A stretch of 15,128 bases of DNA from positions 1-15,128 of the IMG/VR virus record IMGVR_UViG_2663762996_000003. One strand, written 5' to 3'. The notes under the pieces were generated by a model. The model was not told the DNA's origin. It saw only the letters and a list, made by a program, of their open reading frames with translations, and searched no databases. Shown in pieces: positions 4,661 to 6,025 of the stretch (position 1 is the first letter of the stretch; every line of letters starts with the position of its first letter). Position numbers and translations under genes: made by a program. This DNA comes from a virus (Duplodnaviria > Heunggongvirae > Uroviricota > Caudoviricetes).

Positions 4661-4662
4661 AA

Positions 4663-4696
4663 ATCCGGAAACAAGTGAGCGTTTCCGGATTTTTTT
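4663..4696 (+). terminator. Intrinsic-terminator-like hairpin immediately upstream of the transposase ATG
   Basis: Perfect 10-bp stem ATCCGGAAAC (4663-4672) / GTTTCCGGAT (4681-4690) with an 8-nt loop, followed by a T-run to 4696 that abuts ATG 4697. Confidence 0.5.
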
Positions 4697-6025
4697 ATGC
4701 ACATTGGACAGGCTCTTGATCTGGTATCCCGTTACGATTCTCTGCGTAACCCACTGACTTCTCTGGGGGATTACCTCGACCCCGAACTCATCTCTCGTTG
4801 CCTTGCCGAATCAGGTACTGTAACGCTACGCAAGCGCCGTCTTCCCCTCGAAATGATGGTCTGGTGTATTGTTGGCATGGCGCTTGAGCGTAAAGAACCT
4901 CTTCACCAGATTGTGAATCGCCTGGACATCATGCTGCCGGGCAATCGCCCCTTCGTTGCCCCCAGTGCCGTTATTCAGGCCCGCCAGCGCCTGGGAAGTG
5001 AGGCTGTCCGCCGCGTGTTCACGAAAACAGCGCAGCTCTGGCATAACGCCACGCCGCATCCGCACTGGTGCGGCCTGACCCTGCTGGCCATCGATGGTGT
5101 GTTCTGGCGCACACCGGATACACCAGAGAACGATGCAGCCTTCCCCCGCCAGACACATGCCGGGAACCCGGCGCTCTACCCGCAGGTCAAAATGGTCTGC
5201 CAGATGGAACTGACCAGCCATCTGCTGACGGCTGCAGCCTTCGGCACGATGAAGAACAGCGAAAATGAGCTTGCTGAGCAACTTATAGAACAAACCGGCG
5301 ATAACACTCTGACGTTAATGGATAAAGGTTATTACTCACTGGGACTGTTAAATGCCTGGAGCCTGGCGGGAGAACACCGCCACTGGATGATACCTCTCAG
5401 AAAGGGAGCGCAATATGAAGAGCTCAGAAAACTGGGTAAAGGCGATCATCTGGTGAAGCTGAAAACCAGCCCGCAGGCACGAAAAAAGTGGCCGGGACTG
5501 GGAAATGAAGTGACAGCCCGCCTGCTGACCGTGACGCGCAAAGGAAAAGTCTGCCATCTGCTGACGTCGATGACGGACGCCATGCGCTTCCCCGGAGGAG
5601 AAATGGCGGATCTGTACAGTCATCGCTGGGAAATCGAACTGGGATACAGGGAGATAAAACAGACGATGCAACTGAGCAGGCTGACGCTGAGAAGTAAAAA
5701 GCCGGAGCTTGTGGAGCAAGAGCTGTGGGGTGTCTTACTGGCTTATAATCTGGTGAGATATCAGATGATTAAAATGGCGGAACATCTGAAAGGTTACTGG
5801 CCGAATCAACTGAGTTTCTCAGAATCATGCGGAATGGTGATGAGAATGCTGATGACATTGCAGGGCGCTTCACCGGGACGTATACCGGAGCTGATGCGCG
5901 ATCTTGCAAGTATGGGACAACTTGTGAAATTACCGACGAGAAGGGAAAGGGCCTTCCCGAGAGTGGTAAAGGAGAGGCCCTGGAAATACCCCACAGCCCC
6001 GAAAAAGAGCCAGTCAGTTGCTTAA
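4697..6025 (+). CDS. insG: IS4 transposase (DDE family)
   Basis: 442 aa beginning [40 protein letters not shown]..., which matches my memory of E. coli IS4 InsG essentially along its length. Confidence 0.9.

Follow-up and report, generated by a model that had tools for sequence, protein, structure and literature searches.

Cut-and-paste transposases of the Tn5/Tn10 type require two ends, and in IS10 and IS50 the transposase genes are shielded from outside transcription by fold-back inhibition. The strand-switch model for quasipalindromes is reportedly owed to Ripley in 1982, to Rosche and Sinden, and to the Lovett laboratory. Homology-facilitated illegitimate recombination and the crossing of temperate phages with defective prophages are said to have been treated by de Vries and Wackernagel in 2002 and by De Paepe and co-workers in 2014. 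A survey in yeast found that intermolecular strand switching inverts the spacers of short inverted repeats and extends their arms (PMC8604942). Also described are replicative template-switch rearrangements of the FoSTeS/MMBIR kind (PMC2621351) and, at breaks, the insertion of short inverted segments copied from a template (PMC11724301). For IS4 elements, the expected length of the target duplication is 10–13 bp (PMC2266710).

The window analysed here, a stretch of 15,128 bp, is the entire contig CXFI01000117.1 of the short-read draft assembly GCA_001259355.1. By sequence comparison the host element is a lambdoid prophage like SfI/SfII/SfIV and phi467, with an IS4 fossil within its late operon. 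Its head module is 99.4–99.7% identical to those of the Shigella phages SfI, SfII and SfIV, and the closest phage record, vB_EcoM-606R7, shows 98.9% identity over 8.7 kb. In our view, recombination with a related phage probably replaced the left junction of a progenitor IS4 insertion, leaving one end joined by homology and the other by an illegitimate strand-switch joint at the IS4 hairpin; we give this reading a probability of about 60%.

Extent and ends of the IS4 copy

The element and its right end comprise the following features.

4662–6038, plus strand: left-truncated IS4, nt 50–1426 of the element (megablast; five core mismatches to the K-12 copy)
4697–6025, plus strand: intact IS4 transposase ORF of 442 aa (NF033592, 303.8 bits; 439 of 442 residues identical to K-12 InsG)
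6009–6034, minus strand: inward-facing, terminator-like hairpin at the IS4 right end (terminator scan and fold)
6039–6050, plus strand: right copy of the target-site duplication, GTCCCGGTGGTG, at junction J2; resembles the duplications of reference copies

These limits were set by alignment to the full IS4 copies of E. coli S21, FDAARGOS_944 and K-12 MG1655, and megablast matches to thousands of IS4 copies likewise begin at 4662. The copy measures 1377 bp, compared with 1425–1426 bp for 14 reference copies taken from fetched loci. A canonical full IS4 starts with TAATGCCGATCAGTTAAGGATCAGTTGACCGATCCAGTGGCTGTGTAAG and continues as AATCCGGAAAC-GCTCACTT-GTTTCCGGATTTTTTTATG; it is the opening segment, nt 1–49, that is gone from the window. 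The first-pass annotation had supposed that some 50 bp of the left end were missing together with the inverted repeat, and the alignment bears this out at exactly 49 bp. It had also allowed that a reference IS4 might itself start at 4661; no reference copy does so.

The left terminal inverted repeat, TAATGCCGATCAGTTAAG, is found nowhere in the 15,128-bp window. When the whole window was searched for TAATGCCGATCAGTTAAGG with up to three mismatches allowed, the sole match was the right end of the element (6020–6038, minus strand), so that the absence of an inverted repeat at the left junction, as first described, is upheld. The right terminal inverted repeat, which ends ...GGCATTA, has three mismatches and an exact terminus. 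This repeat, placed at 6021–6038, is overlapped by the minus-strand hairpin (6034–6009), which folds with −20.4 kcal/mol (z = −4.9).

The right side of the element is otherwise that of an ordinary insertion. Target duplications of the reference IS4 copies are 11–13 bp long, GC-rich and often end in GGTG; we read J2 as a genuine transposase joint because GTCCCGGTGGTG fits this description. The duplication adjoins the element on this side only, the left flank being an illegitimately joined copy of a 386-bp repeat. The transposase is identified well above the NF033592 cut-off of 115 bits, and its identity to K-12 InsG spans the full length of the protein. In canonical IS4, nt 25–52 hold a promoter-like site (TTGACC, a 16-nt spacer and AAGAAT, with an upstream TG), and a scan of window positions 4200–6500 found no promoter-like site; the transposase gene here would have been deprived of that of the canonical element. 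Because it has only one end and the transposases of its family require two, the copy is almost certainly immobile, as predicted from the behaviour of IS4-family cut-and-paste systems.

The subterminal hairpin and its inverted loop

Three features lie between the phage sequence and the transposase gene.

4660–4661, no strand: junction J1, illegitimate, joining phage DNA (...CGCAAAACG) to the IS4 hairpin with neither inverted repeat nor target duplication
4661–4692, plus strand: IS4 subterminal hairpin with 12-bp arms (4661–4672 and 4681–4692) and an 8-nt loop (4673–4680), from alignment and RNA fold
4690–4696, plus strand: T7 run directly 5' of the transposase ATG, native IS4 nt 78–84 by alignment to reference IS4

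Positions 4661–4696 read AAATCCGGAAAC-AAGTGAGC-GTTTCCGGATTTTTTT and the transposase ATG follows at 4697, which agrees with the 36 bp originally counted between phage sequence and start codon. That description also spoke of a perfect 10-bp stem-loop plus a T-run; both the hairpin and the run are present, but the stem is longer, with 12 Watson–Crick pairs between AAATCCGGAAAC (4661–4672) and GTTTCCGGATTT (4681–4692) and one additional G-U pair. The RNA fold has a predicted energy of −18.1 kcal/mol (z = −4.3), a stability that no sequence among 200 shuffles reached. The stem has five GC pairs and also draws in three of the seven Ts, which pair with As upstream; for this reason the hairpin before the transposase ATG was passed over by the consensus terminator scan.

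The hairpin had been thought to stand in place of the IS4 end. It is instead the subterminal hairpin of IS4 itself: hairpin, T-run and ATG correspond to IS4 nt 50–87 and occur in every full IS4 copy compared, and the same alignment that places the loss at the left 49 bp returns the hairpin as native sequence. Within nt 50–84 there are two exceptions, namely the orientation of the loop and an A added at position 4661. G-AATCC in canonical IS4 is replaced by G-AAATCC in the window, and the stem is thus one pair longer; the added base matches the complement of the T-run. J1 sits at the base of this hairpin. Of its two partners, repeat copy B continues ...CGCAAAACG/CGCACATG and canonical IS4 reads ...GTGTAAG/AATCCGG, where the slash marks the breakpoint.

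Reverse-complementing the K-12 loop, GCTCACTT, yields precisely the loop of the window, AAGTGAGC, and the arms on either side are identical, as is characteristic of a spacer inversion. Taken further, the whole of 4661–4680 is the reverse complement of IS4 nt 61–80, and both the flipped loop and the extra A4661 are accounted for if this segment copies the opposite strand of nt 61–80.

Searches for the flipped loop need some care: reverse-complementing the canonical hairpin gives the flipped 30-nt pattern, which also matches canonical copies read from the opposite strand. We therefore used checks specific for orientation and an asymmetric pattern. In its hairpin context the flipped loop was absent from 5426 complete E. 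coli genomes. It was also absent from 18 loci of species-representative genomes and, in the scan with the asymmetric pattern, from metagenome contigs and viral contigs. Another loop allele does occur in flipped form: GAGTGAGC, the flip of GCTCACTC, is found in an IS4 with a complete left end in four plasmid records (pAL.H8 and three others), all of which hold the same rspA-adjacent copy. Flips number four in 2600 records and represent one lineage with the other loop allele. As these records read, inversion of the loop at the IS4 hairpin arises naturally without truncation, but it is rare.

The direct repeat and the progenitor site

Comparison of the two flanks of the remnant, and of the window with related prophages, defines three further features.

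4275–4660, plus strand: repeat copy A, comprising the portal 3' end and the first 296 nt of the protease gene; allele A (G4285, A4324, A4339)
6039–6424, plus strand: repeat copy B; allele B (T6049, C6088, G6103), equal to prophage L024
4661–6424, plus strand: extra block of 1764 bp (IS4 remnant and copy B) relative to the uninterrupted phage, from comparison with prophage L022

The IS4 remnant is flanked by these direct 386-bp copies of phage DNA. The first-pass annotation had overlooked this repeat, together with the inverted loop and the origin from two alleles. The copies differ at three positions (4285/6049, 4324/6088 and 4339/6103), all within the first 66 bp, and each haplotype is an allele that occurs naturally, G, A, A in prophages L022 and L023 and T, C, G in L024. 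C4238, just upstream of copy A, also belongs to allele A. The window is identical to L022 over 3962–4660 and 6104–8000, and so it looks like an allele-A phage to which a 1764-bp block has been added, the start of which carries allele B. The prophage module is very common and occurs in 1090 of 5426 E. coli genomes, with related prophages at up to five places per genome.

If the block derives from a normal insertion, the progenitor joint should read ...GTCCCGGTGGTG followed by the IS4 left end, and we searched for it with CCCGGTGGTG joined to TAATGCCGATCAG. In five IMG/VR prophage contigs, the left target copy GTCCCGGTGGTG directly adjoins the left inverted repeat. These contigs come from the genomes of UViG 2734482591, 2684622770, 2693429622, 2675903469 and 2859777919. 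Their identity to the window over positions 1–4284 is 99.93%, including a portal region which is strongly divergent in other relatives, and all five have IS4 at exactly the same site and in the same orientation, with the full left end visible in each. The two that reach far enough (L031 and L033) have the canonical loop; the uninverted, ancestral GCTCACTT is therefore on record at the same phage site. The target duplication at this progenitor site is a normal one of 12 bp. All five contigs break inside IS4, and a search of viral and metagenome contigs did not recover the progenitor right junction (the IS4 end followed by GTCCCGGTGG); neither junction is present in the complete E. coli genomes.

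On the strength of these matches, we consider that the five contigs represent the progenitor and that the window derives from their IS4-disrupted lineage. Within 1–4286 they differ from the window at positions 1905, 1918, 4238 and 4285 only. At the last two of these the window has the L022-type alleles, and both fall inside a tract, reaching from at or before 4238 to 4660, which would have been replaced or added from an allele-A relative.

Other origins of the repeat were considered. Transposition itself can leave long direct repeats, since IS1634 and IS1549, formerly grouped with IS4, make duplications of 8–514 bp (PMC2266710), and the 386-bp copies might represent an unusually long target duplication of this type. 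IS4 makes duplications of 11–13 bp, however, the progenitors show the normal 12-bp one at this very site, the left end of the element is missing and the two copies carry different natural alleles; the alleles, the reference duplications and the progenitor duplication together effectively refute this explanation. The alleles likewise exclude an in-situ tandem duplication followed by mutation, as the three differences reproduce natural variants. A sister-chromatid event was also rejected; it would leave a second full IS4 upstream, and there is none.

Over the 320 bases that copies A and B have in common, their phasing was decided by the assembler. J1 might then be real DNA placed in a wrong linear order, with the sample containing an intact prophage together with a separate or tandemly amplified 1764-bp unit, or with two co-resident prophages mis-joined. 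Such an artefact could be favoured by the draft nature of an assembly in which the window is a complete contig, by the presence of related prophages at several places in one genome and by the breaks within IS4 in every progenitor contig. J1 itself is taken to be real DNA and no graph artefact, because the junction and the flipped loop require k-mers which canonical sequences cannot supply at any k of 13 or more. If the assembly graph offers one entry into IS4 (J1) and one exit (J2), the assembled path is the only linear one. A circle of 1764 bp would correspond to nothing in the known biology of IS4. We consider a phasing artefact to be very unlikely.

Effect on the head-module genes

Three reading frames are affected by, or adjoin, the rearrangement.

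3146–4387, plus strand: intact HK97-type portal gene, 413 aa (TIGR01537 portal_HK97, 264.6 bits)
4365–4757, plus strand: truncated protease::IS4 fusion ORF, 130 aa (TIGR01543 matches residues 20–99 only)
6129–6779, plus strand: intact HK97-family prohead protease gene, 216 aa (TIGR01543, 158.1 bits, full profile)

The portal is complete upstream of the remnant and the protease complete downstream of it because of the 386-bp repeat. The last 113 nt of the portal gene fall in copy A, and the length of the portal equals that of the portal genes annotated in relatives; the protease region shows zero mismatches to L022 over 6104–8000. The only losses concern duplicated material, namely the portal tail and the protease fragment which is fused to IS4. 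This fusion ORF consists of protease residues 1–99 followed by an out-of-frame tail derived from IS4, and the exact protein is on record for contig CXFI01000117.1 alone. As we interpret these frames, the rearrangement left the portal and the protease whole, with a one-ended IS4 and the protease fragment joined to it lying in between.

Proposed origin of the rearrangement

The history we favour has four steps. IS4 would first have inserted normally at GTCCCGGTGGTG in the 3' end of the portal gene, cutting off its last 37 codons; this state is the one documented in the five other assemblies. A related, IS4-free phage with another allele would then have supplied the tract that begins no later than 4238 and ends at 4660. 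The left side of this tract would have joined by homology, as its boundary is invisible and is thus best explained by a homologous crossover, and the right side would have joined illegitimately at the IS4 hairpin.

For the illegitimate joint we propose that a replicating 3' end arriving from phage position 4660 copied IS4 from nt 80 back to about nt 61 on the wrong strand, a segment of some 20 nt comprising one arm and the loop. Realignment within the 11-nt palindromic arm would then have returned synthesis to the correct strand and onward through the transposase gene. The expected product has an inverted loop, a stem extended by one pair and a deletion of IS4 nt 1–49. Microhomology at J1 is weak, with five of the last eight phage bases matching the inverted IS4 sequence (P of about 0.03 by chance) and the 3'-terminal CG of the phage side unpaired with it. 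Traced out by hand, simple fold-back self-priming of the IS4 end after resection is less parsimonious than the 20-nt strand switch, because it results in the canonical loop orientation with respect to the retained transposase gene unless the whole IS4 is re-synthesised.

The flip and the breakpoint lie at the same hairpin, and because the flip is so rare this points to one event; we suggest that the loop inversion and the breakpoint arose together in a single act of replication. We do note that plasmids carry loop-flipped IS4 whose left end is complete, and flip and truncation could be separate.

The main rival to a single strand switch involves two such steps: a pre-flipped IS4 variant would have entered the portal gene or evolved there, and a later, unrelated illegitimate recombination or deletion involving a related phage, which chanced to break at the base of the hairpin, would have removed its left end with the addition of one untemplated A. 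The flipped plasmid copies, with their left ends intact, show that a suitable donor can exist, spacer inversions are reversible and recurrent (PMC8604942), and hairpins are known to be fragile and to cause stalling. In the progenitors at the exact site, nevertheless, every readable loop (L031 and L033) is canonical, flips are very rare and confined to the single plasmid lineage with the other loop allele, and the scheme requires that three rarities coincide in one 30-bp element, namely the flip, the breakpoint and an added A which happens to match the complement of the T-run. We regard the two-step history as unlikely and prefer the single strand switch.

The single strand switch, coupled to the import of the phage tract, may also have had a functional outcome. 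A portal gene killed by IS4 could have been regained from the related phage, giving a viable recombinant with immobilised IS4 cargo between portal and protease, and with expression that persists because Q-modified polymerase disregards the IS4 hairpin. We offer this rescue tentatively, as a possibility that falls well short of an even chance; if it is true, the locus would be a natural, base-resolved case of template-switch repair selected for phage function.

Late transcription across the remnant

IS4 was first found as a strongly polar insertion in gal, and the first-pass annotation reasoned that the hairpin would terminate late transcription, so that the protease, capsid and tail genes would lose expression and the prophage would possibly be defective. 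The stability of the hairpin with its T7 run (−18.1 kcal/mol, z = −4.3) and the inward-facing, terminator-like hairpins at both ends of IS4 speak for such an effect. The late operon of this phage type, however, lies downstream of a Q antiterminator, and Q-modified RNA polymerase reads through terminators in lambda and phage 82. The record of vB_EcoM-606R7 is annotated with Q upstream, and with a RecE-like exonuclease VIII. Outside the window, Q genes were identified in same-lineage progenitor contigs (PF06530, 176 bits, L034 6753–7160; PF06323, 207 bits, L030 52–528), where they share a strand with the lysis and morphogenesis genes and precede them. Moreover, the rearrangement restored reading frames and did not destroy them, and records of viable phages can contain a whole IS4 (PhiR70_1 and Lambda_4B5). 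With Q antiterminators encoded upstream in the same lineage, polar loss of late-gene expression through the hairpin appears doubtful, and a prophage made defective in this way is an unlikely outcome.

The hairpin would still act as the barrier of IS4 to incoming transcription, and Q-antiterminated late transcription probably passes it. A transcript from the predicted promoter in nt 25–52 would start at about nt 59–60, inside the 5' arm, which means that only read-in transcripts would contain both arms. A literature search found no published experimental work on the IS4 hairpin or promoter. The locus offers a simple test case for the question whether Q antitermination overrides the IS4 read-in barrier.

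Comparison with known systems

For annotation, the copy should be described as an IS4 remnant, one-ended and truncated on the left, and the hairpin as a standard IS4 feature and not a new terminator. Both states of the rearrangement are at hand, since five assemblies carry the progenitor and the window carries the derivative. An IS-encoded hairpin contains the breakpoint, the inverted loop can be read as the scar of strand switching, and the phage head-module ORFs are restored. The locus is a well-documented instance of known processes; it represents no new kind of element or mechanism.

The nearest element is IS4 of E. coli K-12 itself (the insG element, 1426 bp, IS4 subgroup of the IS4 family), with which the window has nt 50–1426 in common. 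The likeness extends to the right inverted repeat, the GC-rich 12-bp target, the subterminal hairpin, the T7 run and the ATG. The window differs in having neither nt 1–49 nor the left target duplication, in its inverted loop and in a stem longer by one pair.

In the manner of quasipalindrome switching, the arms are kept, the spacer is reverse-complemented and one arm has gained a base templated from the other side; arms of 11–12 bp are within the range where spacer inversions occur (PMC8604942). The putative switch in the window differs in that there was no return to the original template, and in that it was coupled to a jump to another phage genome and so produced a rearrangement breakpoint as well. 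As in FoSTeS/MMBIR and in insertions made during break repair, a short templated segment in inverted orientation marks the breakpoint, microhomology is slight or absent, and the outcome is a duplication and not a deletion. Those cases are eukaryotic or come from amplification in stressed E. coli, whereas the window involves two prophage alleles and its other end is homologous.

The combination of one homologous anchor with one illegitimate joint, between related lambdoid genomes, resembles homology-facilitated illegitimate recombination. The illegitimate joint of the window differs in lying in a hairpin with an inverted loop, and we attribute it to no particular recombination system. The IS4 stem-loop, placed immediately upstream of the transposase start, also recalls the protection of IS10 and IS50 from outside transcription, but the structure in IS4 resembles an intrinsic terminator, which goes beyond sequestration of a ribosome-binding site alone.

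IS4 hairpins

The loop of the left-end IS4 hairpin, which is reverse-complemented in the window, is also inverted in a divergent IS4 copy whose left end is complete (L028 1653–1740, plasmid pAL.H8, NZ_CP082350.1), and likewise in plasmid records H144–H146. The loop of the pAL.H8 copy is GAGTGAGC and its uninverted counterpart is the GCTCACTC allele; this copy also has a T-to-C change in its T-run and is interrupted at its right end by an IS5-family element. The pAL.H8 copy shows that the IS4 hairpin flips naturally. The right end of IS4 also folds into a hairpin:

6009–6034, minus strand: IS4 right-end hairpin, 11-bp stem followed by TCTTTTT

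Terminator-like hairpins therefore face inwards at both ends of IS4, an arrangement which suggests insulation against outside transcription in both directions. We note that two phage records, PhiR70_1 (H168, PV340577.1) and Lambda_4B5 (H169, LR595863.1), carry a complete IS4 elsewhere in the genome.

Mosaicism of the phage modules

Two of the five progenitor prophage contigs, which carry IS4 with a full left end at the same portal-gene site, are each 99.93% identical to window positions 1–4284 and have Q antiterminators of different, unrelated families upstream:

L030 52–528: Q antiterminator, PF06323
L034 6753–7160: Q antiterminator, PF06530

One IS4-disrupted head module is therefore found with different regulatory modules. 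In its 5′ two-thirds (3146–3961) the portal gene diverges strongly from the related prophage loci L022–L025 and phage 606R7 (about 135 mismatches), whereas identity to L022 starts at 3962; the boundary before 3962 is a mosaic joint within the gene. Outside the tract imported from a related phage allele, the window differs from all five progenitor contigs only at 1905 and 1918. Both positions fall in the large terminase gene, separated by 13 bp, and together they might mark another small patch of conversion.

Packaging and tail genes

257–607: HNH endonuclease gene, directly upstream of the terminase genes
729–1223: small terminase gene, P27-family
1220–2953: large terminase gene
10469–11142: tail assembly chaperone pair, PF06222 then PF06223

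The chaperone pair has the usual G/T-type layout, which would fit a programmed frameshift. The order HNH endonuclease, small terminase, large terminase is the typical arrangement of HK97-like cos packaging.
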